A stretch of 64,000 bases of DNA from Candidatus Methanomethylophilaceae archaeon (lineage in GTDB: Archaea; Thermoplasmatota; Thermoplasmata; Methanomassiliicoccales; Methanomethylophilaceae): contig CALUHR010000005.1 in the NCBI GenBank assembly GCA_944320495.1, positions 248,581-312,580 on the forward strand. Reading direction: 5' to 3'. The notes under the pieces were generated by a model. That model made no database searches, had not been told where the DNA came from, and saw nothing but the letters and a program-made list of their open reading frames with translations. This document shows positions 4,243 through 26,675 of this stretch, in pieces; the stretch's first letter is position 1, and each line of letters starts with the position of its first letter. A program made the position numbers and the translations under genes.

Positions 4243-4259
4243 CGGTTCATAAACGGTTC
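4243..4259 (+). promoter_or_regulatory. 17-bp motif CGGTTCATAAACGGTTC, copy 1 (also 6268-6284 and 26591-26607)
   Basis: Three exact copies, all outside confidently called genes in the element; TATA-like core. Confidence 0.5.
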
Positions 4260-4379
4260 GCATCCCATCGTCCCGTTGCACCTCACCCCCGATAACATCC
4301 CCTTCCGATGTCAGCACATGTCTCACCTCGGACCGACTGCCAGGCTCACCGTTTCTTTGACCACCCCGGAGGCCGGCGC

Positions 4380-6131: not shown

Positions 6132-6580
6132 GATTGAATCAGCCGACGGCATCCTATATAACGGTCCGCCGCGGCCGGCGGACACCTCCGATCTTCGACG
6201 TCTGGCTATGTCTCCCGGAGCGGCCTTCGGGACCCCTATCGGACGGGTTCCGACGCCCTTTCGGGGACGGTTCATAAACGGTTCCCATGACATCATGTAC
6301 GCAGGCCCCGCCCCCGTCTTCAATGGGTCCGCCGCTCCGCCGCTTCCGGATCGGCGGTTCGGCGGGATCCCGCGGGAATCCAGCGCGTACGCCGTATAAG
6401 AAGGTCTTCGGAAGACGGCAGAAGCGGGACGGCGAGCAAATGTATCGAAATCTCTCCGCCCCGATGCGATGATAGGACGTCCGGTTATAAGGATTGGGAC
6501 ATCCCAAGTTCCAGAGTTGACGCATCTCGCCATGACCCAAGAGTTGTTTTAGGACGTTGTCAATCCAACTCGGGGATTGG

Positions 6581-7060
6581 ATGCGCAGAATATCGTTGAT
6601 TCGCAGAAGGAAGGCGGTGTCGGAATCCAGACGCTATGATGCCACCACGAGGAGCTGCGTGAACAGGATCATCAGGGACAACATGGTCATCAACGGGTTC
6701 CCAGAGGGTGACCCGGAGGTGGACGGCCCGAGATTCGTTCGCTACGAGGGTGCCATACAGGGGCTGTGCGATGCCCTGATGATGGACTCCGATCCGGTGG
6801 CCAGGGCGGCGGTATGCCTGGATTACATCCTGAACATGCATCCGTTCGTCGATGGGAACAAGCGCACCGGGCTGGCAGTCGCCTCCAGATTCATAACGTC
6901 GGCGCACCGCAGACTTCCGCTCGATGATGAGGACACCTATCTCTTCGTCAGGCGGATAGCGGCCGAAGGGCTGACGAGATACGAGATCGAGGCTTGGCTG
7001 CGCGAGAACACGGTCGGCAATCCTTCAGCTTCGAGAAGACGTACTGGAAATGGTCCATGA
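6581..7060 (+). CDS. Fic/Doc family protein (Doc-type)
   Basis: Motif HPFVDGNKRTG at ~6838-6870; start uncertain. Confidence 0.85.
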   Translation: MRRISLIRRRKAVSESRRYDATTRSCVNRIIRDNMVINGFPEGDPEVDGPRFVRYEGAIQGLCDALMMDSDPVARAAVCLDYILNMHPFVDGNKRTGLAVASRFITSAHRRLPLDDEDTYLFVRRIAAEGLTRYEIEAWLRENTVGNPSASRRRTGNGP

Positions 7061-7549
7061 TCTCATAGAGCCTTCCGTCTCCCCCTTCGAGGAGAGGGTC
7101 CAGTCTGGAAGCGTCCACCGACATGTCCCTTCTGCGGATGCTGCGACTCTCTCCGTTCATCGCATTTCGATAGACGGGATCCGTATTTCTCTTTGACGGG
7201 ACCGCACCGCTTGTGCGGTCCCAATCCAAAACACTAGAGCGAGCGGAATAAATACCATGACCTCCCAATTACCACCGAGGCCCTCGGCGGCACCGGGACC
7301 CGACTAAACGCCCCCCACCTACCGGATACGTGGAGAGGGGTGCGGGTCTGCCATCGGACCGGAGATCAAAACCGGAGCATCCGGATGAACAGCAACGACC
7401 AGCAGCCGTGTATGACGCTGGGATAGGAACAGTGCGGCAACAGGAGTTGAACCCAGGATGACAGCCGGGAGCTGCATCATGGGCAGCCCAGGCTTCAGCC
7501 GCGCTGTTCATGATTCTGACACCGCCGTCCCCTACGAGGGGGCGGTTGC

Positions 7550-8041: not shown

Positions 8042-8905
8042 ATGCCCAAAAGCAACGATGCGATCCTGGCAGGGCAGTATAGGAAGCTCGACAGGACCAA
8101 GAACCGCGCCGTCCGCGACAAGCAGGCGTACGCGAGATACAACAGCAAGGCCGACAAGTACCGCTCCGGCACCGGGCACGGCATCGCCGTGTTCAGCCCC
8201 GTGTCGAAATCGGATACGTGGACCTACTCCGAGACCGGCGGCGAGACGAACGCCAACCGCAACCAGTACGGGGAGAAGGCCCCCGACAGGTCCTCCGGCA
8301 TGGGCTTCGACGAGCACACCAAGATGCTCGCGAAGCAGATCGAGGCGGCCGAGAAGGACGCCAAGGACGCGAAGAAGAAGAGGAAGACGGCCAGGAGCGA
8401 GATGCTCGAGGCCCGCAACCAGCACATCGCGTACAGGATGGCCCAGGGCAAGGCCCACGGCGTCGTCGTGTACAGCACCAGGGCCAAGCCCGTCGTGGGC
8501 GAGGTCGAGGTGCCCAGCAGGCACGGTTCCTACAACCGCTACCCCGTCGACGAGGACGGGAGGATCCCCGCGAGGGAGGTCAGGAGGATCGTGGACGAGC
8601 GCGTCGGATACTCCGGCGTGGACGACGGAAGGACCGCCAGGAGGGTTTACCCGTCCAGGCCGACCCCCCAGATGATGGACGACTACCTCGCGAGGCCGAA
8701 CAGGTCCGACATCGTCGGCATCGATGCGCCGAAGGGAACCAGGCCGACGGTGGACGCGAGGACGTACAAGAAACCGAAGACCGCGTCCGCCAGCGGATCC
8801 TGCAAGGCGAAGGCCAAGGCGCCCGCGAAGTCCGCTTCTAAGAAAGCACCCGTGAAGAAGACTCCGGCCAAGTCCACCAAGGCCAAGACCTCCGGGAGGC
8901 GCTGA
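8042..8905 (+). CDS. Array unit 1: basic protein with PVDEDGRIP...RSDIVGID domain + tail
   Basis: ORF; tail KAKAKAPAKSASKKAPVKKTPAKSTKAKTSGRR. Confidence 0.8.
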   Translation: MPKSNDAILAGQYRKLDRTKNRAVRDKQAYARYNSKADKYRSGTGHGIAVFSPVSKSDTWTYSETGGETNANRNQYGEKAPDRSSGMGFDEHTKMLAKQIEAAEKDAKDAKKKRKTARSEMLEARNQHIAYRMAQGKAHGVVVYSTRAKPVVGEVEVPSRHGSYNRYPVDEDGRIPAREVRRIVDERVGYSGVDDGRTARRVYPSRPTPQMMDDYLARPNRSDIVGIDAPKGTRPTVDARTYKKPKTASASGSCKAKAKAPAKSASKKAPVKKTPAKSTKAKTSGRR

Positions 8906-8907
8906 CC

Positions 8908-9348
8908 ATGGTCGACTACTCCGACATCGTCGGGAACAGCATCGTGGCCAGCGTCATCCAGTCTGACCCCGACACCTTCGAGGAAGTCGTGGCCAAGGCC
9001 GTGAGGACGACATCCAGCCGCAGCCAGGCCGCATCCAAGGTCGAGGACTACGTCAACGACGTCCTCTGGGACGTCATCAACGGTATGGAGGAGTACGAGC
9101 CCATCGCCTACTCCCTCGCATACTACGGGATGCAGTCGATGGAGTACGACGGCATCGGCGACGACATGACCCTGATCGTGGACACCTACATCAGGGAGAA
9201 CGGCCCCAAGGCCGCATCCGTCAGGCGTTCCCCGAACGGCAGGTCCGCACCCAAGCCCAAGTCCGCAGCCTGCAAGCCCAAGGCCAAGGCACCCGCGAAG
9301 AGGACGCCCGCCAAGTCCGCCAAGGCCAAGACTTCCGGGAGGCGCTGA
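8908..9348 (+). CDS. Array unit 2: acidic domain + basic tail
   Basis: ORF; tail ends KAKTSGRR. Confidence 0.8.
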   Translation: MVDYSDIVGNSIVASVIQSDPDTFEEVVAKAVRTTSSRSQAASKVEDYVNDVLWDVINGMEEYEPIAYSLAYYGMQSMEYDGIGDDMTLIVDTYIRENGPKAASVRRSPNGRSAPKPKSAACKPKAKAPAKRTPAKSAKAKTSGRR

Positions 9349-9350
9349 CA

Positions 9351-9788
9351 ATGTCCTACAACGGATACAGGAACAGCGCCACCTGGGGCGTCGCGCTGAT
9401 CTTCGGCAACGACTACGGCTACTACCAGCTGTCCAGGGAGTGGGTCGAGGCATGCGCCCGCAAGGGGATGACCAAGGCCCAGGCCAAGGGGAGGATCGCC
9501 GAGCTCATCGAGAACGAGGTCGACCACGAGTGGGACGGGGCCTACGACGCCGTCGCCCGCGTCGGGCCGATCGCGTCCCAGCTGCTCCCGTCCCTCGGGA
9601 GCATGGAGATCGACTACGGCGAGGTGGCCGACGGCATGCTCGAGGACTACTCCGACCTCAGGAAGGAGTGCGCGTCGTCCTCCGCCAGGCCGAAGGCCGG
9701 GAGCGCTGCGTGCAAGTCCAAGGCACCCGCGAGGAAGTCCCCGGCGAAGTCCTCCAAGCCGAAGTCCAAGACCGCAGGGAGGCGCTGA
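9351..9788 (+). CDS. Array unit 3: YNGYxNxxTW-family acidic domain + tail
   Basis: MSYNGYRNSATWGVALIFGND; tail ends KPKSKTAGRR. Confidence 0.8.
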   Translation: MSYNGYRNSATWGVALIFGNDYGYYQLSREWVEACARKGMTKAQAKGRIAELIENEVDHEWDGAYDAVARVGPIASQLLPSLGSMEIDYGEVADGMLEDYSDLRKECASSSARPKAGSAACKSKAPARKSPAKSSKPKSKTAGRR

Positions 9789-9789
9789 C

Positions 9790-10170
9790 ATGCTCCCTCA
9801 GACGTTCGAAGGGGAGGACGGCTTCGTCTCCGAGGTCGTCTACTACACCCTCTGCAAGAGGATCGACAGGCTCATGGACTCCCTGTACCGCAAGGGCGTG
9901 AAACCCCGCGACATGCGCAGTGACATCAGCGGGCTGATCGATTCGGAGATCGGAAAGGTGAACGCCGCCGGCATGAGGCCGGACGCCACCCTCACGGAAG
10001 CCCTGGCATACGCGATCGCCGACTGGTACTACGAGGAGAGGAACGATGTCGTCCAGTTCTGCATCGACAACTATGTCCCTCCCAGCGGTTCCAAGGCATC
10101 CAGGCCCAAGGCACCCGCCAAGAAGTCCCCGGCGAAGTCCTCCAGGCCGAAATCCAAGGGGAGGCGCTGA
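9790..10170 (+). CDS. Array unit 4: acidic domain + tail
   Basis: ORF; tail ends RPKSKGRR. Confidence 0.8.
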   Translation: MLPQTFEGEDGFVSEVVYYTLCKRIDRLMDSLYRKGVKPRDMRSDISGLIDSEIGKVNAAGMRPDATLTEALAYAIADWYYEERNDVVQFCIDNYVPPSGSKASRPKAPAKKSPAKSSRPKSKGRR

Positions 10171-10172
10171 CC

Positions 10173-10634
10173 GTGGCCCGGAGTCCCATCCGCATAGACT
10201 ACGGTCATGTGAGCGGGATGGCACTGGACATCGTCGTGGTGTACGAGCCGAAGTTCTCCGACACCCTCTGGGAGTGCGTCTCCGAGGGCATGGGCAAGGC
10301 CGACTGCATCGAGGAGCTCCGCTACTACCTCTACCACGGTGCCGAGCTCGCCGTCGGCAACACTAGGTTCGCCCCCGATCCCGACACCCCGCAGGACGAG
10401 CTCGACCTTTGCAGGAACATCGCCCTCAGGGGCGTCGACGACTACCAGGCGAGCGGGGAGGCCGACAGGGCCGCCAGTATCCTCGTGAACGACAACTACG
10501 AGAGGTTCAGGGCAGCCGTCAGGGACCACGGGAGCGGATCCCGCAGGACCGCTCCGAGGGGCGGTGCCAGCAGGCCGAAGGCCAAGGCACCCGCCAGATC
10601 TTCCAAGCCCAAATCCAAGGGGGTGAGGAGATGA
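10173..10634 (+). CDS. Array unit 5 (GTG start): acidic domain + tail
   Basis: ORF; tail ends KPKSKGVRR. Confidence 0.8.
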   Translation: MARSPIRIDYGHVSGMALDIVVVYEPKFSDTLWECVSEGMGKADCIEELRYYLYHGAELAVGNTRFAPDPDTPQDELDLCRNIALRGVDDYQASGEADRAASILVNDNYERFRAAVRDHGSGSRRTAPRGGASRPKAKAPARSSKPKSKGVRR

Positions 10635-11065
10635 CCTACAACGGTTGGGCCAACCGCCCCACCTGGGCGATAGCCCTCTGGTTCGACAACGACGAGGGCC
10701 TGAGTTCCATGAAGGACGAATGGATCCAGGATGCCGCCGATCAGGGGATGTCCTATGAGGAGGCCGAGGACTACGTCTGGGACCGTCTCGAGGAGTACGT
10801 TGAGGAGGAGTACGCCGAGGCATGCGACTCCGTCAACCCCATGATCGCCGACGCGCTGCTGATGTCCCCCGGAATGGCCAACATCGTCTTCTCCGAGATC
10901 GTCAGAGGGTTCCTCCGTGACGCGGACTACAGGCCCGCGGCGTCCGGTTCCAAGAAGCGGAAGGTCGGGGGCGTTCCCAAGAGCGGTTCCAAGGCTGTCA
11001 AGCCCAAGGCGAAGACGCCCGTGAAGAAGGCGTCCAAGCCGAAGTCGAAGAGGGTCCACAGATGA
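10631..11065 (+). CDS. Array unit 6: YNGWxNxxTW-family acidic domain + tail
   Basis: ATGA overlap start; MTYNGWANRPTWAIALWFDNDE. Confidence 0.8.
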   Translation: MTYNGWANRPTWAIALWFDNDEGLSSMKDEWIQDAADQGMSYEEAEDYVWDRLEEYVEEEYAEACDSVNPMIADALLMSPGMANIVFSEIVRGFLRDADYRPAASGSKKRKVGGVPKSGSKAVKPKAKTPVKKASKPKSKRVHR

Positions 11066-11418
11066 CCCGCTATCGCACGCCCGACGGCGACGTCATCGAC
11101 GAGGGCGACCTCGAGGACGCAATCTACGCCGCATTCACCGAGGACGACTTCAGACGCTGGCTGGACTCGAACTACTCTGGGTTCGACTATGACAGGTACC
11201 ACATCCCCGCGTCCGAGGTCCTGGACGTCATGGGAGAGTTCGACTACAAGTACCGCGAGACGGTGGACTCCATCGTCTCCGACTACGGGTCCGACTATCC
11301 GTCACTGGAGGACCTTGGATTCGAGGAGCTCGACGACGATGACGATGAGTCCCACTCCAAGAGGCCGAAGGCCCGTCCCAAGACCTCCAAGCCCAAGTCC
11401 AAGGGGGTGAGGAGATGA
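11062..11418 (+). CDS. Array unit 7: very acidic domain + tail
   Basis: ATGA overlap; D/E/Y-rich. Confidence 0.8.
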   Translation: MTRYRTPDGDVIDEGDLEDAIYAAFTEDDFRRWLDSNYSGFDYDRYHIPASEVLDVMGEFDYKYRETVDSIVSDYGSDYPSLEDLGFEELDDDDDESHSKRPKARPKTSKPKSKGVRR

Positions 11419-11960
11419 TGTGGACCTATGAGGATAGGGACGGCGTCATCCGCGTCGCCGACGAGCAGGAGATCCTCTACAAGGTGACGCCCGACGCGGC
11501 CTTCGCCAAGTACCTGGACAACGAGTTCTCCGAGATCGACATCCTAGACCGCACCTACGAGCCGTCGGAGGTGTTCATCGAATGGTCCGAGGATGACTTC
11601 GCCAGGGCTGCCTCCGAGTGGTTCAACGACGCCATCTTCCACCCGACCGAGAGGGACCTCTCCTACTTCGAGGAAATCGGAGTCTTCCCCGCGACCGAGG
11701 AGGACATCCGCAACGAGAAGGTGGACAGGGGCATCGACAGGGTCGGCAAGAGGTCCGCGGGACTACAGAACGCCCTCGGAAAGAGGGGTTCCGGCACCGC
11801 CAGGCCGAAAGCCGGCGGCAGGATGACCATCAGGCCGAGGGCGAAGCCGAAGACTCCCGTGAAGAAAGCGTCCAAGGCGAAGTCCGCGTCCAAGACCGCC
11901 AAACCGAAGACTCCCGTGAAGAAGACGTCCAAGCCCAGATCCAAGGGGGCCCGCAGATGA
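11415..11960 (+). CDS. Array unit 8: acidic domain + internally duplicated tail
   Basis: KPKTPVKK occurs twice in the tail. Confidence 0.8.
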   Translation: MMWTYEDRDGVIRVADEQEILYKVTPDAAFAKYLDNEFSEIDILDRTYEPSEVFIEWSEDDFARAASEWFNDAIFHPTERDLSYFEEIGVFPATEEDIRNEKVDRGIDRVGKRSAGLQNALGKRGSGTARPKAGGRMTIRPRAKPKTPVKKASKAKSASKTAKPKTPVKKTSKPRSKGARR

Positions 11961-12409
11961 CCGGCTCCGACTGGGCCAACTACGAGACGTGGCTCGTCCA
12001 CGTCCACATGTTCAACGAAGAGTCCGTGCGGAAGGAGTTCCGCTCCGCCCTCGAGAAGAGGGCCAAGGAGGGGCTGGACCGCCGCACGGTCCGTGACATC
12101 GTCACGCATGATGTCCAGGCTTTCGTGGAGGAGACCGCCGAGGAGGCGTCCCGGCGCGTCCGCAACCCCATGATAGCCGATTTCATCGGATCCTTCCCGG
12201 GACGCATAGACTGCTCCCAGATTGCCGACTCGTGGATGGAGGTCTACGACGGCATCGCCGCGGAGCAGGTGACATCCAGGTCCCCTTCCAAAGGGACCGC
12301 TCGCAACACACCGACGAGGAAGGGACAGAGGTCCCGCGCCCAGAGGTCGAGACGATCGAGGGGAGGTGTTTCTGAATGGTTTACAACGGAAGATCGAAAG
12401 GAAAGATGA
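11957..12409 (+). CDS. Array unit 9: WxNxxTW-family domain + Arg-rich tail
   Basis: MTGSDWANYETWLVHVHMFNEE; frame runs past the next ATG (12376). Confidence 0.75.
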   Translation: MTGSDWANYETWLVHVHMFNEESVRKEFRSALEKRAKEGLDRRTVRDIVTHDVQAFVEETAEEASRRVRNPMIADFIGSFPGRIDCSQIADSWMEVYDGIAAEQVTSRSPSKGTARNTPTRKGQRSRAQRSRRSRGGVSEWFTTEDRKER

Positions 12410-13545
12410 AATCGAGAGGAATGGGAACGAAAGCCGGGAGGAGGCCTCCCGCATCCCGGTCGCTGAAGGCGGTCGTCACGCCCGACGTGTCGCCGGAGAG
12501 CCCCTTCGACGGCATGTCGATGTTCGGTTCCCTTCTGATATGCGATCCGAGCGTCGGCAATACCCGCAACTACGTGTCCTTCGAGGATCTGGACGAGTTC
12601 TGCAACGCGAAGTTCGACATAGACAGGTTCTACGATGAGGTCTACACCAGGAGCGAGAGGGACGTCGCCACATACATCCGTATGTACGGCGCACTGGCCG
12701 TGGAGGTCCGCGGCGCACTCATCATCGCGGGCCACGAGCAGATCGTCCGCGAGTACGGCTACGACAACGCCGATTCGAGGGCGAAGGCCCTGGACCTCCT
12801 GAGAAACGAGGCCGAGATCTACATGCAGTGGGCCGACGGGGACGTCTGGCAGGCCATCGTCTATGACGACCACACCGACGACGAGTCCGTCCCGGACAGA
12901 GTCGTCATCAGGTACGATCCCTGGGACGACGACGAGGACGGCGATATCGTGGACTCCCTGGGCGAACTGTACGGACAGGAGTACGCCGAGCAGGAAGCTA
13001 AGCGCATGATCGTCGACGAGAGGGAATCCCGCGGGCAGACCCCGAACTTCGCCAAGGGTTCGGCGTCGAGGAAGGCTCCAAAGAGCCGTTCCGCGTACAG
13101 TGCGAAGGGACGCCCTTCCGTCGGCCAGTATGACAGGGCGAGATACGCCAGGGCCACGAGCGGCGGACACTCGATTCTCAGGGTCTACTACGATCCGGGC
13201 GAGTCCGAGATGATGGGACGCCCCGTCTACGACGTGGTTGCCCGCAAGGCCGGCATCCCCGGGCTTATCTGGGGCAAGGACTACGACCCCGCCTCCGGCC
13301 TCTGGAGCGGAGGGGACTACGACATCACGAGGGAGAAGCTCGAGAGACACGCGATGGGACATGACCTCATCCGCGAGTACGGGCAGATTCCCGCGGACGC
13401 GTTCGGGAGGTCCAAGGGCATGAGCCAGACGTCCAGACCGAAGTCTAAGCCGAAGGTTCCCGCATCCAAGGCTGCCAAGCCGAAGTCCAAGGCGCCAGCG
13501 AAGAAGCCCGTCGCCAAACCCAAGGCGGAGGGGGGACGCAGATGA
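12376..13545 (+). CDS. Array unit 10: two-domain protein with internal and terminal basic tracts
   Basis: Motif IYMQWADGDVW; internal GSASRKAPKSR; terminal KPKAEGGRR. Confidence 0.8.
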   Translation: MVYNGRSKGKMKSRGMGTKAGRRPPASRSLKAVVTPDVSPESPFDGMSMFGSLLICDPSVGNTRNYVSFEDLDEFCNAKFDIDRFYDEVYTRSERDVATYIRMYGALAVEVRGALIIAGHEQIVREYGYDNADSRAKALDLLRNEAEIYMQWADGDVWQAIVYDDHTDDESVPDRVVIRYDPWDDDEDGDIVDSLGELYGQEYAEQEAKRMIVDERESRGQTPNFAKGSASRKAPKSRSAYSAKGRPSVGQYDRARYARATSGGHSILRVYYDPGESEMMGRPVYDVVARKAGIPGLIWGKDYDPASGLWSGGDYDITREKLERHAMGHDLIREYGQIPADAFGRSKGMSQTSRPKSKPKVPASKAAKPKSKAPAKKPVAKPKAEGGRR

Positions 13546-13982
13546 CCCTCCGCGACGAAGCCCCGCTGACCTTCGAGTTCGGCAACAACACCTGGCTCAC
13601 CTGGGAGTACTACCGCGACAACGAAGCCCTCTCCGAGTCCTGGACGGAGGAATGCGCCCGGGAGGGACTGACCCGCACCCAGGCCGTCGAGAGGATCGTC
13701 GGGAACATCAGGGACGATCTCGCCGACGCCTTCAGGGACGGCGTGTTCAGTACGCAGAACCCGGCGACTTCCGCGGTCCTGCTCCAGGACCCCGATCTCA
13801 TGGACATCGACTACAGGCAGGTCGCCGTACGCATCGTCCATGCGTTCTGGCCCGAGGGGTCCGCATCCCCGAGAAGGGCGTCCAAGCCGAAGGCACCCGC
13901 GTCCAAGGCGAACAAGCCGAAGGCCAAGGCACCCTCCAAGAGGCCCACAACCAAACCCAAGTCCAAGGGGGGACGCAGATGA
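13542..13982 (+). CDS. Array unit 11: divergent NxxTW-family domain + tail
   Basis: FGNNTWLTWEYYRDNE; ATGA overlaps at both ends. Confidence 0.8.
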   Translation: MTLRDEAPLTFEFGNNTWLTWEYYRDNEALSESWTEECAREGLTRTQAVERIVGNIRDDLADAFRDGVFSTQNPATSAVLLQDPDLMDIDYRQVAVRIVHAFWPEGSASPRRASKPKAPASKANKPKAKAPSKRPTTKPKSKGGRR

Positions 13983-14788
13983 AGGGCAGGACCGCAACCA
14001 GGTCCCCGTCCAAGCGCTCCGTCATCTACCCGGTCAGGGACGCGCCCTGCCCGGTCAGGACGACAGCGGGTTCCGACATCACGGACGACGTGATCCTGTT
14101 CCGCCGCAAGGGCAGGCAGGGGGACCCCGCCGCGTATCTCACGGACGACGGACGCTCCCTCATCGACCTCGTGGCCGCCAAGGCCGGCCCCGATGCCGCG
14201 GGAGGGTTCGCATCCCACAGGTTCCGCTCCGACGACACCATGACGAGGGCGCTCAGGGAGCTCGGCATATCCAACGAGGTCGTGGACGAAGGCATCCTGG
14301 CATCGGCTAGGGGCATCTACGGCTACGAGTCCTACGACTACAGGATGTGGTCCAACGGCCACACCGGATACCGCGTCGCCCATGTGGAGGACCCCTCCGA
14401 CGACACGGGCAGGAACCTCATCGTGGACGACGAGTCGAAGATCCCTGGCAGGGTCATCTCGAAGGGGAACCGCATCTACTACAACGAGAGCAAGGCGGAG
14501 CTCCACGGTGCCGAGTTCGGCAGGGACAACGCCCCGAAGAGGGACTGGAGGTTCAGCCTGGCGTTCCGCGGGGATACCAGCGGGCTCACGGTCGAGGAAG
14601 TCTCCAGGCTCGGCTACGACGGGCGCGACATGGAGGTCGGCGACGAGATGTCCGTCGGCCCCCTCGTGATCAGGAGAGTCAAGGGCGACGCCATGGACTA
14701 CGTCTCGAGGTCTGGCTCGCCGAGATCGAAGGCCAAGGCGCCCGCCAAGAAGGCATCCAAACCCAAGTCCAAGGGGGTGAGGAGATGA
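13979..14788 (+). CDS. Array unit 12, paralog of unit 13
   Basis: ATGA start; RSPSKRSVIYP, DDPSDDTGR-like and NAPKRDWRF motifs shared with unit 13. Confidence 0.8.
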   Translation: MKGRTATRSPSKRSVIYPVRDAPCPVRTTAGSDITDDVILFRRKGRQGDPAAYLTDDGRSLIDLVAAKAGPDAAGGFASHRFRSDDTMTRALRELGISNEVVDEGILASARGIYGYESYDYRMWSNGHTGYRVAHVEDPSDDTGRNLIVDDESKIPGRVISKGNRIYYNESKAELHGAEFGRDNAPKRDWRFSLAFRGDTSGLTVEEVSRLGYDGRDMEVGDEMSVGPLVIRRVKGDAMDYVSRSGSPRSKAKAPAKKASKPKSKGVRR

Positions 14789-15642
14789 ACGGCAAGGCAC
14801 CGAGATCCCCATCCAAGCGTTCCGTCATATATCCGGCGAAGAACGCGACCTGCCCCGTAAGGACCAAGGCGGGAAAGGACCCCGCGGCCAACTCGACACT
14901 CTACCGCTTCAGGGGCGACGTCGTCGGGGACCCGAACGCATACGTCACCGACGACGGGAAGACTCTCGTGGATCTCGTCGGAGCTGTGGCGGGTCAGAAG
15001 GATGCCGAGGAGTTCTCCGGACACAGGTATCGCACCATCGACGCGCTTCTGGACCGTCTCGGGGGATTCGACATCTATGCGACTCGCTGCTCGGACCTCT
15101 CGATAGTCGCCGGGAGATACAGCATAGTGTACGACGAGGCCAAGGATTATGACCGCTGGCTCGACGGCGACGTGTTCCGTGTCGCCGAGGTCGACGACCC
15201 GTCCGACGATACCGGCAGAACCCTCTACGTCGATGATGTGTCTCAGATCCCCGGGCGTATAATCCGCAAGAGGCACGGTGTGTACTCTTACGAGGACGCA
15301 CAGCACACGGCGGCGGAATTCGGCATGGAGAATGCCCCGAAGAGGGACTGGAGATTCTATGTCGGTCAGAGGCCTGGTGACAACTCCATCGGCTACGATG
15401 ATGCGGTCAGACTCGGCTACGACGGTCGTGACATGAAGGTCGGCGATTATATGGAGGTCGGGCCTCTCATAATCCAGAGGGTCGATGGCCATCTGTCGGG
15501 CTATTTCGCCCCGGACTCCGACGGCTCCAAACCGATAACCAGGAGGACGGTCGGGCCGAAGGCTGGGACATCCGGCAAGGTACCAACCAAGACTCTCGCA
15601 TCCAAAGCCACCAAGCCCAAGTCCAAGGGGGTGAGGAGATGA
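14785..15642 (+). CDS. Array unit 13, paralog of unit 12
   Basis: ATGA start; YDRWLDGDVF motif. Confidence 0.8.
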   Translation: MNGKAPRSPSKRSVIYPAKNATCPVRTKAGKDPAANSTLYRFRGDVVGDPNAYVTDDGKTLVDLVGAVAGQKDAEEFSGHRYRTIDALLDRLGGFDIYATRCSDLSIVAGRYSIVYDEAKDYDRWLDGDVFRVAEVDDPSDDTGRTLYVDDVSQIPGRIIRKRHGVYSYEDAQHTAAEFGMENAPKRDWRFYVGQRPGDNSIGYDDAVRLGYDGRDMKVGDYMEVGPLIIQRVDGHLSGYFAPDSDGSKPITRRTVGPKAGTSGKVPTKTLASKATKPKSKGVRR

Positions 15643-16025
15643 GCGTCAGCGCGTTCGTCCACACGTACTTCATCAGATACCTGGAAGAGAAGGGCGTGGA
15701 CATCTACGACTACGCCATGGAGCTGGCGGAGAGCGGCAGGGACTACTGGGACTGCGAGGAGGTGTTCGCGGACTACATCGAGCGTCTCGCCATCGAGTTC
15801 CAGTACGATGCGGCGGACTACGCCGAGTCGGACATCACCACGATGCTCGTCGAGGACTGCCTCCTCAGGGAGGTCGTGGACTTCGACCTGTTCTTCGACA
15901 GGGACGGCAGCCCGCTGAAGGGCAGGTCCGGTTCCCGCAGGCCCGCGTCCAAGGCAACCGGGCCCAAGGCCAAGGCATCTGCCAAGAAACCCTCCAAGCC
16001 CAAGTCCAAGGGGGTGAGGAGATGA
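15639..16025 (+). CDS. Array unit 14: acidic domain, paralog of unit 16
   Basis: ADYIERLAIEFQ vs ADYIGRLAVEFQ. Confidence 0.8.
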   Translation: MSVSAFVHTYFIRYLEEKGVDIYDYAMELAESGRDYWDCEEVFADYIERLAIEFQYDAADYAESDITTMLVEDCLLREVVDFDLFFDRDGSPLKGRSGSRRPASKATGPKAKASAKKPSKPKSKGVRR

Positions 16026-16627
16026 CCGGGTACGGCTGGGAGTTCCCGGACGGAACCGTCATCCCCGTCGAGGACGGTTCCGCCGTCGAGGACAAACTCC
16101 TCTCGATGGACTCCTTCTGGGACAGGAACAGGAAGGACTGCCTCCGCCAGGGGCTGTTCTACCAGTGGTACTGCGACGAGATCGGGCGCGACATCGAGAA
16201 CATGTCCGAGAGGGAGCTCTACGACCACTTCGGCGTCAGATGCTCCGAGGACAGGGACGGGAAGGTCGTCTACGTCCTGCCCGAGGGTGACAGGACCGAT
16301 GCGAGGGGACTCTTCGAGTGGATCGAGGAAGAGGGCTACCGCTACGACGAGTGGCTGGAGTTCAACTCCGACTGCTACGACTTCAAGGAGCTGGTGAAGA
16401 ACGAGGCCGAGTATCTGACCTCCGACTACGGCAACGAGGAGTCCATGGGGTACTACGGCGTCAGGCTGGTACCGATGTCCTCCGGATCCAAGAGGCCGTC
16501 CAAGCCGAAGGCGAGGACTCAGGCGAGGAAACCCGTCTCGAAGTCCGCGTCCAAGGCATCCAAGCCCAAGGCCAAGGCTCCCGCGAGGAAAGCATCCAAG
16601 CCCAAGGCGAAGGGGGTGAGGAGATGA
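16022..16627 (+). CDS. Array unit 15: acidic domain + tail
   Basis: ATGA overlaps; D/E/Y/W-rich. Confidence 0.8.
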   Translation: MTGYGWEFPDGTVIPVEDGSAVEDKLLSMDSFWDRNRKDCLRQGLFYQWYCDEIGRDIENMSERELYDHFGVRCSEDRDGKVVYVLPEGDRTDARGLFEWIEEEGYRYDEWLEFNSDCYDFKELVKNEAEYLTSDYGNEESMGYYGVRLVPMSSGSKRPSKPKARTQARKPVSKSASKASKPKAKAPARKASKPKAKGVRR

Positions 16628-17016
16628 CCGCCGACGTGTTCGTCGCCCGCGCCTTCCTCAAGTACCTGGATGGGAGACGGGAGAGACACGATCTCTACGC
16701 CCTGAAGCTGGCCGACAGCGGCAGGACCGAACGGGAATGCGAGGACGCGTACGCCGACTATATCGGACGTCTCGCCGTCGAGTTCCAGCGGAGTGCGGTG
16801 AATGACGTCGATCCGGACGTCACGGAGCAGCTCGTCGAGGACTTCGACTTCCATGAGTTCGTGGACACGGGCTACTACTTCGAGTTCGACGGGACCCCGC
16901 GCGACAGGTTCGGCACCCGCAGGGCCGGGTCCGCGTCCAAGGCATCCAGGCCGAAGGCCAAGGCTCCCGCGAAGAAGCCCGCATCCAAGCCCAGGTCCAA
17001 GGGGGCGAGGAGATGA
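16624..17016 (+). CDS. Array unit 16, paralog of unit 14
   Basis: ATGA start at 16624. Confidence 0.8.
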   Translation: MTADVFVARAFLKYLDGRRERHDLYALKLADSGRTERECEDAYADYIGRLAVEFQRSAVNDVDPDVTEQLVEDFDFHEFVDTGYYFEFDGTPRDRFGTRRAGSASKASRPKAKAPAKKPASKPRSKGARR

Positions 17017-18443
17017 CCGCACCCAGGCGCAGAGCATCCTCGAGGTCCGCCCGCTACGCGGGGGACCTCCCCAAGAGGATCCGCGACCACCCGTACCTGT
17101 CCGTCCCGGGAGGCGTCCTCCGCCTCCCCGACGGGACAAGGGTGTACGCCGAGTCGGACATCGAGCTCCTCGATGGCCAGGACGAGGGTCTCGTCTACTT
17201 CTGGACGGACGCGGTCGACGAGGAGGGCGGATACTACGGCATCGCGTTCTCCTTCGAACTCGACGAGCTCATGAGGACCCCCTGGAACAAGGTGGACTGG
17301 CAGGGACACATCGACGACGTGACCTACGAGCCGCCCGAGAGCGGTTCCAAAAAGCCCAGATCCAAGACCAAAGTCTCAAAGAGGCCCGTCTCCAAGTCCT
17401 CCAAGCCCCGCGTCTTCACCGTGGCCGATTGGGACGCGGGGAGGATCGGGGAGATGAGGCCCGGCGACGGGCTCGACAGGGAGCTGTACGACGGACTCCG
17501 CTGGAACGGCTACCCCTACCCCGCCGACCCCCGCGTCCTGGCGGCCAACGGTTGCATCCGCGGGTACTGTCTGGGGAAGGTCAGCGATAGGGGCAACTAC
17601 ACCTACGGCGAGACCCCCGACGGGAGATACGTCTACCTCGGTCTCTCGATCCCGCTGGACGAGACGCCCTACACCATGGCCCTGTCCAACCCGAACAGCC
17701 TCGATTCCCGCTACGACGCCCGCGTCGCCGCGAAGGAGGTCGAGGCCGAGGAGAGACGCCAGAGGGAGTGGGCCAAGGATCCCCGCTCCAAGTACGTCGA
17801 TGTGGACGAGTGCAGGATCTACGGGGCCGTCGAGACGTTCGACGACCTCGTGGAATACTACACGCTCTTCAACCCGGAGTATGCGGAGCGTCTCCGCGAC
17901 CCCGAGGTCGTTGGGTATCTGAGGGACTACTACGCCCACATGGACTGGGTGAGCCACGGGAACGGACCCAGCTACGACGAGGACGTGGACGGGGAGACGA
18001 TGCTCAGCCATCTGTACGACCTCACCGAGGAGGCCGAGTCGTTCCAGACGGAGTTCATGGAGGACGAGTACGAGAACGGCGACACCGACATGCTGGACTT
18101 CCTCAGACGCCGTGCGGCGATCCAGAGGAGGTACGGAGTCGAACCAGACTGGAAGGATTCTTCCAGTGGTTCCAGGAAGGGCAAGACACCCTCCAAGGCG
18201 TCCAAGCCCAAGGCACCTGTCAGGAAGGCCGCCCCCAAGGCGGCCTCCAAGACCACCAAGCCGAAAGCGAAGACTCCCGCCAAGAGGCCCGCCGCCAAGC
18301 CCAAGACAAAGGGGGCGAGGCGATGGGCACGTCCAACTACGCCCACGACACCAGCTTCCTCGTATGGGCCTTCGAGTACGAGCCCGACGAGGACTGGTAC
18401 CGCGAGGAGTTCCCCGACGAGTCCGACGACTCGATCCACCTGA
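17013..18443 (+). CDS. Array unit 17: fused multi-domain unit with internal tail; reads ~40 aa past its tail
   Basis: Internal GSKKPRSKTKVSKRPVSKSSKPR (~17340-17410); KGARR followed by TGG instead of TGA. Confidence 0.8.
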   Translation: MTAPRRRASSRSARYAGDLPKRIRDHPYLSVPGGVLRLPDGTRVYAESDIELLDGQDEGLVYFWTDAVDEEGGYYGIAFSFELDELMRTPWNKVDWQGHIDDVTYEPPESGSKKPRSKTKVSKRPVSKSSKPRVFTVADWDAGRIGEMRPGDGLDRELYDGLRWNGYPYPADPRVLAANGCIRGYCLGKVSDRGNYTYGETPDGRYVYLGLSIPLDETPYTMALSNPNSLDSRYDARVAAKEVEAEERRQREWAKDPRSKYVDVDECRIYGAVETFDDLVEYYTLFNPEYAERLRDPEVVGYLRDYYAHMDWVSHGNGPSYDEDVDGETMLSHLYDLTEEAESFQTEFMEDEYENGDTDMLDFLRRRAAIQRRYGVEPDWKDSSSGSRKGKTPSKASKPKAPVRKAAPKAASKTTKPKAKTPAKRPAAKPKTKGARRWARPTTPTTPASSYGPSSTSPTRTGTARSSPTSPTTRST

Positions 18444-18988
18444 TGATGGCCGAGGACCGCGACATGGAGTACAGGCAGGTCGAGAAGGCCGTCCAGCCCA
18501 TGCTGGACCGCCTCAACTCCGATCTCCTGTTCCACAGACTGGGTATCCGCTCCGGGTACTACGACGGCATCCAGGTCTATGTCGACGAGCCGTCCCAGGA
18601 CAGGTGGCTGGTGCCGGAGCTCCGCGATGCCTGGGAGGAGATGTACGGCGAGGACTCCGTCCCCGACGACACCAGACTCCTCGGCGTCTACGCCGACGAG
18701 CGCACCCGCATCAGGAAGTGGCTGAGGGACAACCTGCCCCGGCTCGGGTTCCATGCCCTGAGGTACACCTCTCCGTGGACGATCGAGCGCGTGGAGAATC
18801 CCAGCAGGAGGGCGTCCAAGCCGAAGGCGAAGAACCCCGCAAAGAGGTCCAGGCCGAAGGAATCGTCCAAGACGGTCAAACCGAAGACTAAGCCCAAGAA
18901 CCAAGAGAAGAACTCTGGAACTAAGTCCAGAAAGAGGTTCCGACATGTCCAAACGCGAGCGTGGCGGTGTCGGAAAGAGACCTGGTAG
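18323..18988 (+). CDS. Array unit 18: acidic domain; tail disrupted at junction with the lower-GC gene
   Basis: ATG after GGGGCGAGGCG; tail degenerates to KPKNQEKNSGTKSRKRF. Confidence 0.75.
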   Translation: MGTSNYAHDTSFLVWAFEYEPDEDWYREEFPDESDDSIHLMMAEDRDMEYRQVEKAVQPMLDRLNSDLLFHRLGIRSGYYDGIQVYVDEPSQDRWLVPELRDAWEEMYGEDSVPDDTRLLGVYADERTRIRKWLRDNLPRLGFHALRYTSPWTIERVENPSRRASKPKAKNPAKRSRPKESSKTVKPKTKPKNQEKNSGTKSRKRFRHVQTRAWRCRKETW

Positions 18989-19886
18989 AAGGTCGTATCA
19001 TCAACCAGGACAGCCCAGATACCCCGTCAGGAGGTCCCCAGAAGAATTCAAAGAGATGGGTTCCAAAGTCTCCAAGATTGGCAGAATCGAAAAAAGAAGA
19101 TCGATCTGGGCCATAGACGATTCAGGAACTGCTGATTTTACCGAAGGTGCGAGTGAATACCTGACGTTGACGGCAGTGACGATGCTGAACGAATCGGATT
19201 TCAGGAAGATGTTCTCTAACATCACACTGTATGATGGGGAGATAAAATTCAATCTCCTGAGATTGGAACATCCCGACGAATGTCTCACTGCCATGAAGCG
19301 CATCGGCAGCAGTACGGCCTTCATCGCTTGCTACCCTCGCTTCAAGGATTTTTCCAATCCCCAGGATCGTCGTCTGTTCTTCTTGGAATCCCTACAGAAA
19401 CTCATCGATTCTATCATGCGGATCGATCGTTCGAGTCTTGTCCTGATAGGTGTGGATGAGAACAACTACCTGTTGTCCTCTGACTACTACGAACTATGCA
19501 GTCCCAGATGCCTGGTATTCCCTATCGACTCGAAGGATTCTCTCCTTTTGCAGACAGCGGACATGGCCACGAGTAGCTTGGGCCATGCCCTGCTTCCCGC
19601 GAATAGGGGGACATCCGCATATTTCGATGAAATCAGAGACAGAACGATGAATGTACACGGGAAGCCCGGCGTAAGCACACAGCAAACACCAAGGGGCTTC
19701 AACCGTGACGATATAGAATCGACCACAGAAGTTAAAAAGGTTGGTGGGTCCAAATCATCCAAATCCCGTTCTACGAAGGTTGTTCGTGGAAAGGATGGAA
19801 GATTCGTATCCTCTAACCCCTCCAAGCAGAAATCAACCCAGAAAAATGAGTCGAAGGCATCCAAGCCCAAGGGGGTCCGCAGATGA
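18945..19886 (+). CDS. Array unit 19: DUF3800-like protein fused to the basic tail
   Basis: IWAIDDSG and DSKDSLLLQTAD motifs; lower GC than neighbours; ends SKASKPKGVRR. Confidence 0.6.
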   Translation: MSKRERGGVGKRPGRRSYHQPGQPRYPVRRSPEEFKEMGSKVSKIGRIEKRRSIWAIDDSGTADFTEGASEYLTLTAVTMLNESDFRKMFSNITLYDGEIKFNLLRLEHPDECLTAMKRIGSSTAFIACYPRFKDFSNPQDRRLFFLESLQKLIDSIMRIDRSSLVLIGVDENNYLLSSDYYELCSPRCLVFPIDSKDSLLLQTADMATSSLGHALLPANRGTSAYFDEIRDRTMNVHGKPGVSTQQTPRGFNRDDIESTTEVKKVGGSKSSKSRSTKVVRGKDGRFVSSNPSKQKSTQKNESKASKPKGVRR

Positions 19887-20283
19887 CCCTTATATCCCCA
19901 GCCACTGATGTTGGCGATGCGGTCGCGGAAACACCTCGCAGTAGGGAACGTGGCGGCTCCCACGCGACTGCACCTCTTGTTTCAGATTGTGAAGATAGAA
20001 ACGGACGCCCGCTCCCGGTTGTGGGCACAGTTCTCCCACAGTGTCGGGTGCGTCGTCCCCAGTGGTCCCAAGGTGTCACCCCCAGGTTGCCGCCTGCAAG
20101 GATCGATGCGGCTGAAGGTATTTCAACCCATTCCCGCACCATCAACCGTACGTCCGTCCTCCGTGGACTGGCGCTGAACATTCTCTCGCACATCGCGGGG
20201 ACCTCTGGGTCCCCCACAAACCCCAACAAGGATGGGAATCCGATGAAAATGTACAGCGCAATCAGTGGAACGGGGGTCTCCGC

Positions 20284-20946
20284 ATGACCCTCTGGAACGT
20301 CTATCTGCCCCACGGCAACTTCGCCGAGAGGATGGCCGTCGAGGCCCCGAACGAGAGGGAGGCATTGGAGGCCGTCGCGGAGAAGCTCCGCGGGACCGTC
20401 TTCGTCATCGACTATGACGAGTGGGACGCCAGATTCCAGGACTACATCGCGGACGGGTACTCCGCCGACGAGGCGGAGAACATACTGGACGAGATGTACC
20501 TGCCGGTGGACGGCGGGTACTACCTGGACATCACGGGCGTCACCATCGAGGAGGCCCGCGACACCGGCTCCGACGGCAGGGTCGACGCCGTCAAGCTGGC
20601 CTACGATCTCGCCGACTTCGGCGAGGAGACGGACCACTACGAGTTCTGGGACAACTACAACACCATGGAGGACGCCGTCACCCAGCTCACCCAGTCCCTG
20701 GGAACCCTCGCGGGCTCCAGGGCGATCCGCGACGACATCGCGGAGAGGATGGCCGAAGGATTCGCCACCTATGGCGAGGACGAGAAGGCCAGGGGCCTCA
20801 TATCCAGGCTCGACAGGCACATCAGATCCTTCGGCAGCGGTTCCGGGAGGCCGAAGGCCGGGAGGCCCGTCTCCAAGGCGTCCAAACCGAAGGCCAAGGC
20901 ACCCGCCAGATCCTCCAAGCCGAAAGCCAAGGGAGGACGCAGATGA
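20284..20946 (+). CDS. Array unit 20: acidic two-part domain + tail
   Basis: ORF; KLAYDLADF...DHYEFWD segment; ends KPKAKGGRR. Confidence 0.8.
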   Translation: MTLWNVYLPHGNFAERMAVEAPNEREALEAVAEKLRGTVFVIDYDEWDARFQDYIADGYSADEAENILDEMYLPVDGGYYLDITGVTIEEARDTGSDGRVDAVKLAYDLADFGEETDHYEFWDNYNTMEDAVTQLTQSLGTLAGSRAIRDDIAERMAEGFATYGEDEKARGLISRLDRHIRSFGSGSGRPKAGRPVSKASKPKAKAPARSSKPKAKGGRR

Positions 20947-21374
20947 ACTCGTACATCGACGCGGGGCAGATCGCCGAACACCTGAGGTACGAGCGCGACA
21001 GGGGGAGGCTCGAAGCCTTCCTCGATAGATCCGTGGATCTCGACGGCATCCTCATCAAGACGAGGGAGACGTCGAGGGGTGGCAGGGTCGTGTCCGAGCG
21101 CGTCATCGAGATGACGCTGCCGATCCGCTGGGCCGATCTCGGGGCCACCTTCGTCCTCAGGCCCCTCGCGCCCAACCACGTCGCCATGTACCCCGAGTCG
21201 GACCCCGAAGACCCTGTGTATTCGACGGTGGCGAATGACGTCTGGAGATGGCTCCTGGACAGATACCGCGAATCCGCCGCCGGACACGGCGTGGACATCG
21301 ATGCCTACGGGACCGTCATCACGGCTTCCCTGAGGCCGGCATCCAAACCCAAGTTCAAGGGGGCGAGGAGATGA
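20943..21374 (+). CDS. Array unit 21: domain + short tail
   Basis: ATGA start; ends ASKPKFKGARR. Confidence 0.75.
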   Translation: MNSYIDAGQIAEHLRYERDRGRLEAFLDRSVDLDGILIKTRETSRGGRVVSERVIEMTLPIRWADLGATFVLRPLAPNHVAMYPESDPEDPVYSTVANDVWRWLLDRYRESAAGHGVDIDAYGTVITASLRPASKPKFKGARR

Positions 21375-21706
21375 GCGCGCGCATCAACGACCCGCTCGGG
21401 TTCGCCAACGGCGTGATGCCCAGGAACCCTCCCCAGGCTTACCGTGCGGTGATCATGCGTCCCGACGGCAGCGTCAGCATCACCCATGAGTTCCCCCGCG
21501 GATTCCTCGAGCAGGTAGTCATCCCGGACGCCCTTGCCCAGGTTCCGGGCGGAAGGCTCTTGGAGATAATCCGCGACGAGGATAAGGAGGCCTGGATAAG
21601 GGCGCACACCAAGCCCAGGTCCGCGTCCAAGGCGTCCAGGCCGAAGGCCAAACCTCCGGCGAAGAAACCCGCGTCCAAACCCCGTTCCAAGGGGGCGGTA
21701 CGCTGA
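21371..21706 (+). CDS. Array unit 22: domain + tail
   Basis: ATGA start; ends KPRSKGAVR. Confidence 0.75.
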   Translation: MSARINDPLGFANGVMPRNPPQAYRAVIMRPDGSVSITHEFPRGFLEQVVIPDALAQVPGGRLLEIIRDEDKEAWIRAHTKPRSASKASRPKAKPPAKKPASKPRSKGAVR

Positions 21707-21747: not shown

Positions 21748-22284
21748 GTGTGGACCGTCACCGCGACGTCCGACGACCCGGCCGACCCCTCCGGCCCCCT
21801 CGGGGCCAGGGTGGTGGTGGAGAACCCCGCCTCCGCCTGGACCCGCTACCGGGAGGTGTCGGAGTTCAGGCCCCGCGGCGCGAGGGACGAGTGGGTCGGC
21901 GTCCCCGCCTACGTCAGCGAGAGGGCGGAGGAGATGCTCGAGGACGAGCGCGACGACCTGGAGAACAGGATTCGCTGGATCCTGAACAGGCACGACGGGC
22001 GCGGGAAGATCCTCTACGACAGGATCAAGGGTTCCGCCGTCGGCCCCTGCCCCAGGTGCGGCTCCCGCTCGGTGACCGTCGATTCCTGCGTGAAGAGGGG
22101 GAAGGGCAACTCGCTGGTGGACGGCCCCTATTCCATAGCGTGCTGCGACTGCTGGCTCCGCACCTCGTACCACGTCGACAGGTCGCTGATGCTGGCTGAG
22201 TGGAACGAGGGGCATCCGTGGCTCGAGTACAGGCCGGGCAGGCCGGTGCCGATCCGCGGGGACTATGAGAGGTGCGGGGCATGA
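21748..22284 (+). CDS. Zn-finger protein with Lar (restriction alleviation)-like C-terminal domain
   Basis: GPCPRCGS...IACCDCW...MLAEWNEG resembles Lar PCPFCG...CxxC...AIxxWNxR. Confidence 0.55.
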   Translation: MWTVTATSDDPADPSGPLGARVVVENPASAWTRYREVSEFRPRGARDEWVGVPAYVSERAEEMLEDERDDLENRIRWILNRHDGRGKILYDRIKGSAVGPCPRCGSRSVTVDSCVKRGKGNSLVDGPYSIACCDCWLRTSYHVDRSLMLAEWNEGHPWLEYRPGRPVPIRGDYERCGA

Positions 22285-22819
22285 AACCGATCCGCGTCCG
22301 CACGGGATCGGATGATAAGGATGGGCAGAGAGGTGACTTCACATCACATCACGACGTGGCCTCTTTGCCCGGTGTGCGGGTCGCTCATGCCCTACGGCAG
22401 GAGACGGGACGGCCGCAACACGGATACAACGTCCGCGCCGTAGTTGATACTTCCGCCGGAACGGACATCGTCGGAGAGAAAGGCGGGAATGGCGAGACTT
22501 GCACGCAGCAGAATCGCTACTTCATCCCCGTATCTCCGATTCATCCGCTGGCTAAGAATCTTTCTGGAAGAATGGAGGCGGATAACATAATATCCTCCAC
22601 AAGAGGTATGCCGTACTGCAATTCGGCGGAAAATATATCGCTACCAGGGGAAGCGGCGAGACCCCCCGCTGGATTGCGTTCTGTTGTGTTCTCCAAAATC
22701 CAAATTCAGGAGATCGAAGTACAGGGATGCGCCGAAATCGACCTCGCAGAAGTCGGGATACGCATCCCCGCACCCTCCATCCCCTCCCCGACCAAGAACC
22801 TTTGCACGGAGGTGTCCGC

Positions 22820-26416: not shown

Positions 26417-26675
26417 ATCCCGGCCCGGGGAGTCGCGTTCCAATCCCCGGGCCGGGCCTCCGTCGCCACGTGCAGGGACGACGGCGGACCGCAATTGGAG
26501 GTTTAAGGTCCATCACGGTCAAGGACGAGCATATAGAAACGGTCTTCCCTGGAATCCGCCGCGACCTTGACCGTCCGACAACCGTCGGAACGGTTCATAA
26601 ACGGTTCCCATCCCATCGCCCCCGTGTCCGTGACCACCGAATCAACCCCCGAGACGGACCCCTCACGGGGATCCC

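Follow-up and report, generated by a model that had tools for sequence, protein, structure and literature searches.

A tailed gene array in an archaeal mobile element

The window analysed here is a stretch of 64,000 nucleotides (nt) on contig CALUHR010000005.1 of an uncultured gut Methanomassiliicoccales archaeon (Methanomethylophilaceae). It carries an integrated mobile element that contains an array of 23 co-directional open reading frames (ORFs), U1 to U23, which abut or overlap one another (Table 1). The backbone of the element is conserved among related elements and includes a nucleotidyltransferase in addition to the genes listed in the table. Each array unit is a complete ORF with its own Shine-Dalgarno (SD) sequence and start. 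The N-terminal domains are mostly unrelated and unrecognised: the only Pfam matches in the array are DUF7249 (U3, U6 and U9) and DUF3800 (U19), and Pfam-type family searches of the units found no toxin or immunity families. Nearly all units, about 22 in total, have in common a C-terminal tail rich in Lys, Pro, Ser and Ala, however dissimilar their N-terminal domains. Our literature searches found no description of this array.

The tails end in a repeated stretch of DNA. A first-pass annotation, made from the sequence alone, had described a 33-nt segment as identical at 11386 and 15993 and nearly identical at about 10602, about 14756 and 15611. The first two copies are indeed exact and the other three carry one mismatch each, the last of them starting at 15610. 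Allowing up to three mismatches, we found eight copies, all on the + strand and confined to the array, compared to none in 100 dinucleotide-preserving shuffles; the 18-nt core of the repeat has no other occurrence in the 1.77-Mb genome. Every copy comprises the last 10 codons and the stop of one unit, with the start of the following unit contained in its ATGA. The junctions between units are of two types. Type A, after U1 to U4, has a stop of its own, while type B, found elsewhere, reads ...AAGGGGGNNNGNAGATGA and makes its stop from the TG of the next start plus one base. ATGA or ATGG is present at 17 junctions.

Whole units are gained and lost among close relatives

We compared the window with two closely related elements. 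L019 is a 134-kb MEGAHIT k141 contig (ENA ERZ27271791) with a mosaic identity of 88-100% to the window, and L060, assembled independently of L019, is a metagenome-assembled genome from NCBI (GCA_964306345.1) that is 87-99% identical to it. Crossovers were placed by reading three-way alignments, automated mapping being too noisy against the background divergence. Seven whole-unit indels (U2, U4-U5, U11-U12, U13b, U17b, U21b and U23) separate these three near-identical elements; unit content is therefore not fixed, in line with the idea of cassette shuffling put forward in the first-pass annotation. L019 has three extra units, namely U13b (174 amino acids, between U13 and U14), U17b (between U17 and U18; an intact + strand ORF of about 1 kb that the gene caller overlooked) and U21b (186 amino acids, between U21 and U22), and it lacks U23. 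L060 has U21b and lacks U2, U4-U5, U11-U12 and U23. In all seven cases both breakpoints lie in tail or junction DNA, and the ORFs left behind are intact, tailed and coupled. These natural variants go beyond the anatomy of the array and show the gain and loss of accessory genes in a mobile element of a methanogenic human-gut archaeon.

The position of the crossover differs between events, and crossovers are scattered over 60-100 nt of tail DNA (Table 1); those of U13b also lie in tails and do not correspond to a simple two-parent crossover. It had been proposed that units are swapped by recombination at or near the ATG. The breakpoints do lie in tail or junction DNA, with one event at the AGATGA itself, but they are not confined to the ATG and scatter through the tail. 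Comparison across strains revealed variable content but an unchanged unit order among close relatives. Tails bound seven of the eight large indel regions in the array although they make up only about 15% of it, and the sole large region outside tails is at U20 (19883-20287). U20 has no tail and a weak coding character, and at its site L019 and L060 carry about 600 extra bases and an intact, longer gene in which a DIAGIDTP-type motif is present; several internal deletions in this longer gene have probably left U20 as its decayed remnant.

Table 1. Positions of the array, its junctions, variable units and selected backbone genes in the window
Feature	Position	Strand	Remark
Zot-like P-loop ATPase (weak match)	1202-2926		backbone gene
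HExxH protein	2930-4078		backbone gene
Array of 23 co-directional ORFs, U1-U23	8042-21706	+	abutting or overlapping
Four type-A junctions, U1 to U5	8891-10175	+	GGGAGGCGCTGAC(N)ATG/GTG; tail end G-R-R, autonomous TGA, next start 1-2 nt on
U2	8908-9348	+	missing in L060, where U1 joins U3 via a type-A junction; crossover in type-A junction
U4-U5	9790-10634	+	missing in L060; crossover inside 33-nt repeat (TCCAAGCCSAARTCCAAG, just before GGGG)
33-nt repeat, U5 to U6	10602-10634	+	1 mismatch
33-nt repeat, U7 to U8	11386-11418	+	exact; identity with 15991-16025 reaches 35 nt
57-nt tandem duplication in U8 tail	11841-11942	+	polymorphic; missing in L060, whose tail is 19 amino acids shorter
U10 start ATGG	12376-12409	+	U9 reads TGG (Trp) at 12377; 10 extra codons
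U11-U12	13542-14788	+	missing in L060; crossover at AGATGA stop/start overlap itself
33-nt repeat, U12 to U13	14756-14788	+	1 mismatch
33-nt repeat, U13 to U14	15610-15642	+	1 mismatch; right boundary of U13b site of L019
33-nt repeat, U14 to U15	15993-16025	+	exact
33-nt repeat, U15 to U16	16595-16627	+	2 mismatches
33-nt repeat, U16 to U17	16984-17016	+	2 mismatches
U17 tail, site of extra unit U17b in L019	18286-18300	+	in tail; not a simple two-parent crossover
U18 start ATGG	18323-18443	+	U17 reads TGG at 18324; 40 extra codons in another frame of U18
U21 tail, duplicated around U21b in L019 and L060	20845-20933	+	clean crossover within about 28 shared nt, proximal tail
33-nt repeat, U22 to U23	21342-21374	+	3 mismatches; left crossover region of U23 polymorphism
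U23	21371-21706	+	in window, missing in L019 and L060; crossover within about 19 shared nt of tail DNA, start of repeat
Lar-like zinc ribbon	21748-22284		backbone gene
Tyrosine recombinase/integrase of element	28553-29596	+	generic, not integron-type; 7 kb downstream of array

Differences of this kind could in principle arise from repeats that were collapsed or skipped during metagenome assembly, and short low-coverage contigs do end at or near the repeats. One such contig, L018 (ENA ERZ28614434 scaffold_298381; 680 nt), consists of window positions 10758-11418 followed by 15991-16044, and crosses the 35-nt identical junction from U7 into U15, of which only the first 19 nt are present. Either it represents a genuine deletion variant of 4.6 kb, or it is a chimera of assembly or of reads; the other contigs of its sample cover U15-U17 and U21-U23 only. 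Against an artefact as the general explanation, exact repeats do not exceed 35 nt, compared to k = 141 for L019, and the extra units hold hundreds of unique bases and intact ORFs. Furthermore, the independent assemblies L019 and L060 share both U21b and the absence of U23, and window-type contigs from five samples are collinear. We regard misassembly as the most improbable of the explanations considered here.

Variation extends to more distant members of the family, in which the array on a syntenic backbone ranges from 2-3 units (G117, G128) through about 14 in the congeneric genome G115 to 23 in the window. The order of some homologous units differs in these distant members (a U3-like before a U2-like unit, and a U15-like unit before the U10 N-domain), and in G115 a U1-like gene carries the C-terminal domain of U10 as a fusion. 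Variable tailed units also occur outside the main array: a 388-residue DUF3800-like gene with a KGARR tail, missing in the window, stands in L019 and L060 between the Lar-like gene and the 22727 gene (window 22272-22720). A scan of JGI and ENA metagenome contigs with a degenerate 30-nt junction returned three short human-gut contigs only, one of them collinear with the window at 98.9%, and a scan of IMG/VR with the 18-nt core gave 12 single chance matches and no arrays.

The end of each protein is set by its downstream neighbour

Since the type-B stop is TG plus the first base after the next ATG, it had been noted that the downstream unit supplies the stop and that units starting with ATGG cause the preceding frame to read Trp and run on. 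We observed these run-ons at all three positions named (12376, 18323 and 27032), with lengths of 10, 40 and 3 codons; the third, outside the array, belongs to the 26676 gene and ends at 27044. The relatives show directly that the stop follows the neighbour. In the window and L060, the KGARR-Trp run-on before U18 belongs to U17, whereas in L019 it is U17b that precedes U18 and bears a KGARR-Trp run-on of about 40 residues. The junction type changes in the same way: U3 ends in type A before U4 (window) and in type B before U6 (L060), and U21 ends in type B before U22 (window) and in type A before U21b (L019, L060). Because the junction type changes with the downstream neighbour, the SD/start junction belongs to the downstream unit in recombination. 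For annotation this means that the end of each protein must be read from the gene that follows, and that ATGG starts give run-on tails. A separate run-on occurs in L019 (12255-12285), where a type-A junction has CGA in place of TGA at the U17 stop (AGGAGGCGCCGACATGG) and the frame continues for 30 codons.

Translation signals and codon usage underlie the repeat

The 33-nt repeat is a composite of 15 nt of translation signals at its 3' end and 18 nt of tail codons at its 5' end. The last 15 nt (GGGGTGAGGAGATGA) contain the SD and the overlapping start of the next gene and are read in frame as G-V-R-R-stop. Genome-wide, GGAGG, GAGGT, AGGTG and GGTGA are enriched upstream of starts, with GGTGA preferred 4-6 nt from the ATG. 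In the repeat this distance is 4 nt, within the usual SD spacing of this genome, which confirms the earlier suggestion that the repeat holds a ribosome-binding site and the ATGA overlap. Each of the last four codons (GGG GTG AGG AGA) is a minor codon of this genome, the final AGA being forced by the overlapping ATG, and yet the same codon was used in 73% of same-residue comparisons, compared to 35-38% expected (P-value <0.001). G115 has the same terminal 18 nt, although its backbone proteins show no more than about 55% identity to those of the window, and so do the unrelated metagenome gut contigs L013 and L015. In G115 type-A tails end in G-R-C where the SD reads GGAGGTGC, so that the SD sequence overrides the tail sequence there. 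The terminal G-x-R-R is therefore largely an SD read in frame. Since minor codons are involved and the identity spans elements about 55% identical in protein, the identity of the terminal 15 nt reflects translational constraint and not recent homogenisation.

The preceding six codons (S-K-P-K-S-K; 18 nt) use the commonest codons. Their codon identity is 78%, compared to 62% expected from the units' own usage (P-value = 0.005) or 67% from tail-specific usage (P-value = 0.02). Six units have the SKPKSK peptide, among which one pair (U7 and U14) is fully identical, about as many as expected by chance. Codon bias together with the SD/start constraint accounts for almost all of the repeat, while codon bias alone does not. 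The identity noted earlier "even at synonymous positions" is therefore real, but over the first 18 nt it only slightly exceeds the prediction from codon bias. Codon bias alone, which had been named as an explanation that would undermine the shuffling proposal, covers most of these 18 nt but not the whole repeat. Synonymous identity is poor evidence of gene conversion here: the terminal 15 nt are fixed by the SD and start, and the upstream 18 nt mostly by codon bias.

Tails vary and may be exchanged between units and elements

The tails are unstable in other respects as well. Between the window and L019, divergence is 2.4 times higher in tail DNA than in gene bodies (4.7% compared to 1.9%), and one tail is polymorphic in length through a tandem duplication (Table 1). 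Adjacent units resemble each other more closely in their proximal tails than non-adjacent units do (permutation P-value = 0.003), and in G115 three adjacent units with unrelated N-domains have in common an element-specific version of the tail at 85/93 nt. In a GENECONV-style donor search on divergent tails, the U14 tail matched its orthologue at 48/60 positions and paralogous tails at 51-52/60. At informative sites, L060 alternates between window-like and L019-like blocks, a mosaic ancestry that shows frequent exchange between variants. In the three relatives, the boundaries of the mosaic blocks could fall at junctions, though the intervals that contain them are wide.

Foreign genes may also enter the array. 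U19, a DUF3800 gene of low GC, ends in a short grafted tail; in G115 the DUF3800 gene stands in a different place and has no canonical tail, and L019 and L060 each hold a second tailed copy. This pattern fits recruitment of the gene into the array, without being proof of it. We also noted a K/R-G-R-F-V motif that precedes the shortened tails of U19 (window 19800-19886), U17b, the second DUF3800-like gene and one unit of G115 (L001), with positions in L019 of about 13290-13362 and 19050-19151. The motif may mark a distinct tail subtype.

Tail DNA as a probable substrate for general recombination

The anatomy of the junctions, the constraints acting on them and the natural indels with breakpoints in tails are the observations from which an explanation has to start. 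We favour as probable that tail and junction DNA serves as a substrate for ordinary homologous or microhomology-mediated recombination that gains or loses whole units. The argument for such a role is that nothing else is shared: the tail and junction are the sole sequence common to neighbouring, otherwise unrelated genes. The 3' 15 nt of the repeat provide the SD and start of the next gene, doubling as the G-x-R-R and stop of the preceding one, and the 5' part, together with the 50-90 nt upstream, encodes a basic, histone-H1-like tail. Exchange would take place within one element and between co-resident variants, where a tail-to-tail crossover would remove, duplicate or insert whole units. The recombinant products would automatically be in frame, tailed and translationally coupled, and selection would then keep the in-frame products. 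The junction moves with the downstream unit, so that the last residues and the stop of the upstream unit follow its neighbour. A protein-tail coding segment fused to a translation-coupling signal would in this manner act as a universal in-frame recombination joint, and such a joint would explain why related elements hold anything from 2-3 to about 23 units.

Several observations weigh against this explanation. Exact homology at the crossovers is short (6-35 nt), U13b and U17b do not derive from simple two-parent crossovers, and each event may be either a deletion or an insertion. We saw no reordering of units in these close relatives. L018 is the one direct candidate for recombination at the exact repeat, and it comes from a low-coverage assembly and is possibly chimeric. 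In addition, survivorship may partly explain the tail breakpoints, since only events that preserve the frame, tail and coupling would survive selection.

The last point leads to an account in which the repeat is kept purely for the tail and the SD/start, indels arise illegitimately, selection retains those in tails, and the repeat promotes no recombination. It draws on the finding that SD/start signals explain the terminal 15 nt and codon bias largely the upstream 18 nt, on the identity of the junction in distant elements, and on the short homologies and two complex events just described. The concentration of large indel regions at tails is, however, difficult to reconcile with it, as are the clean crossovers within shared stretches of 19-28 nt. 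Element-specific homogenisation of tails, similarity of neighbours, excess divergence and length polymorphism are, moreover, the usual signatures of repeat-mediated exchange. Constraint without recombination therefore seems to us unlikely, if clearly less so than misassembly.

Much more doubtful is a true integron-like system, in which a site-specific recombinase such as the tyrosine integrase of the element would move units as cassettes at the junction core. The regular single-gene array, the conserved junction, the presence of a tyrosine recombinase in the same element and the foreign low-GC DUF3800 gene with its grafted tail all recall such a system. The crossover, however, varies by event between the proximal tail, the 33-nt repeat, the AGATGA and the type-A junction, and the sole invariant DNA is explained by translation signals. 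The integrase of the element, encoded at its far end, scored 25.1 bits against the integron integrase profile TIGR02249, for which the cut-off is 265. We found 18 inverted repeats, none of which lies in a 33-nt repeat or folds as a hairpin, although a short palindrome spans the type-A junction of U1 and U2. Single-strand folds of 120-nt junction segments on both strands gave z-scores of -1.4 to +1.05 relative to shuffles, with no stable structure. The first-pass annotation had spoken of an integron-like array without attC sites; the absence of attC-like structures at the junctions was borne out, while the likeness to an integron was not supported, given the scatter of crossovers and the distance of a generic recombinase.

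We return, therefore, to recombination between tails. It is because the breakpoints scatter that general or microhomology recombination is preferred over a site-specific reaction. The pathway itself, the direction of each event, and whether evolvability was selected or is a by-product are points that we infer. Judged by the comparisons described above, the array behaves in its evolution as cassette arrays do, but with no dedicated recombinase.

A stronger form of this proposal is possible, though we hold it only tentatively. The tail/junction module might be a selected, integrase-free gene-capture adaptor, and the array a rapidly reshuffled, probably anti-defence arsenal whose units are exchanged by co-infection. 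An ORF recombined between two tails would gain a DNA-binding tail, perhaps for delivery with the element DNA; it would also join a coupled operon and acquire flanking homology for further exchange. Foreign genes such as the low-GC DUF3800 gene could be drafted into the array by this route. Should the tail serve as a tag for cargo or for DNA binding, new cargo proteins would be recruited through this joint.

Comparison with known modular systems

Promoter-early stem-loop (PeSL) cassettes have been reported to mediate the shuffling of modules in the hyperplastic regions of T4-type phages (Arbiol et al. 2010, PMC2839356; PMC4122927). In these phages, accessory ORFs lie between repeated promoter-terminator cassettes, which also mark the ends of the indels that separate close relatives (PMC2839356). 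PeSL-mediated shuffling is the closest known concept to what we describe. In both cases short repeated expression signals flank non-essential accessory ORFs, here as a tail and SD/start module at nearly every junction; insertions, deletions and replacements between close relatives are bounded by the repeats, here as seven whole-unit indels; and an expression repeat doubles as the joint for general and not site-specific recombination. The differences are also clear. PeSLs are intergenic promoter-terminator units, whereas the joint in the array is coding DNA fused to an SD and overlapping start, so that recombinants must be, and are, in frame, and each captured unit receives a protein tag. The host of the array, moreover, is an archaeon. 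PeSL mini-circles have been shown in phages, while the array is known from assembled sequence, with L018 the only hint of such an intermediate or product. The use of regulatory repeats as shuffling joints, known from T4-type phages, would thus have a counterpart in coding DNA and in archaea.

Polymorphic toxin loci (rhs, cdiA) contain arrays of orphan modules, in which a conserved coding segment provides the homology for exchange without a dedicated recombinase. These arrays consist of silent, 5'-truncated modules with cognate immunity genes, downstream of a full-length toxin gene. The array resembles them in that a conserved coding segment common to unrelated modules is the recombination handle. 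The polarity is reversed, however, since here the C-terminal end is conserved and the N-terminal domains vary, and the units are complete, translated genes and not silent orphans, with no immunity partners or toxin domains found. With integrons the array has in common co-directional single-gene units of variable number and content, apparently in one operon, and the uptake of foreign genes; unlike them, it has no IntI, attI, attC, hairpins or fixed crossover point, and its units carry their own translation signals and a common protein tail. Finally, the terminal 15 nt are a textbook case of ATGA translational coupling, with an SD and a 4-nt overlap in which the stop is the downstream start plus one base. 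The array departs from ordinary coupling in that the SD is read in frame as a conserved end (G-x-R-R) of the upstream protein, the arrangement recurs at more than 15 successive junctions, and the second codon downstream decides the end of the protein upstream.

The element and its other genes

Searches of the backbone proteins against Pfam, PHROGs, NCBIfam, PDB and Atlas gave only weak matches to a Zot-like ATPase, Fic, Lar-like, nucleotidyltransferase and integrase proteins. No att-type direct repeats of at least 19 nt were found flanking the element, and an ATPase-based search for related loci among the genome contigs gave no match. A group of genes at 241693-248406 of contig C5, up to 7 kb upstream of the window, encodes a 1087-residue protein that has Ig-like surface-protein features and is anchored in the membrane at its C-terminus, then three small membrane proteins and one protein of 497 residues; the whole group stands upstream of the ATPase. 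Family searches with this group gave no match, and it looks like an envelope or virion module. Pleolipovirus-like proviruses have been reported from Methanomassiliicoccales (PMC10919331), and because these occur in the order to which the host belongs, it is plausible that the element is such a provirus; family and structure searches did not establish its identity.

The Fic/DOC gene (6581-7060) shows dense substitutions between the window and L019 at 6700-7120, with nearly identical flanks, and this segment looks locally exchanged or fast-evolving. An 'RSDI-x-GID-x-P' module recurs in U1 (8702-8738), the 22727 gene (23426-23462), the 25097 gene (25310-25346), the HExxH protein and relatives, which points to domain-level paralogy or shuffling beyond the tails. 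Furthermore, a direct repeat of about 50 nt that starts with CGGTTCATAAACGGTTC is present in three copies (window 4243-4292, 6268-6317 and 26591-26640), each directly ahead of the point where a gene or operon of the element starts. It contains a TATA-like TTCATAAA and may be a shared promoter or operator.

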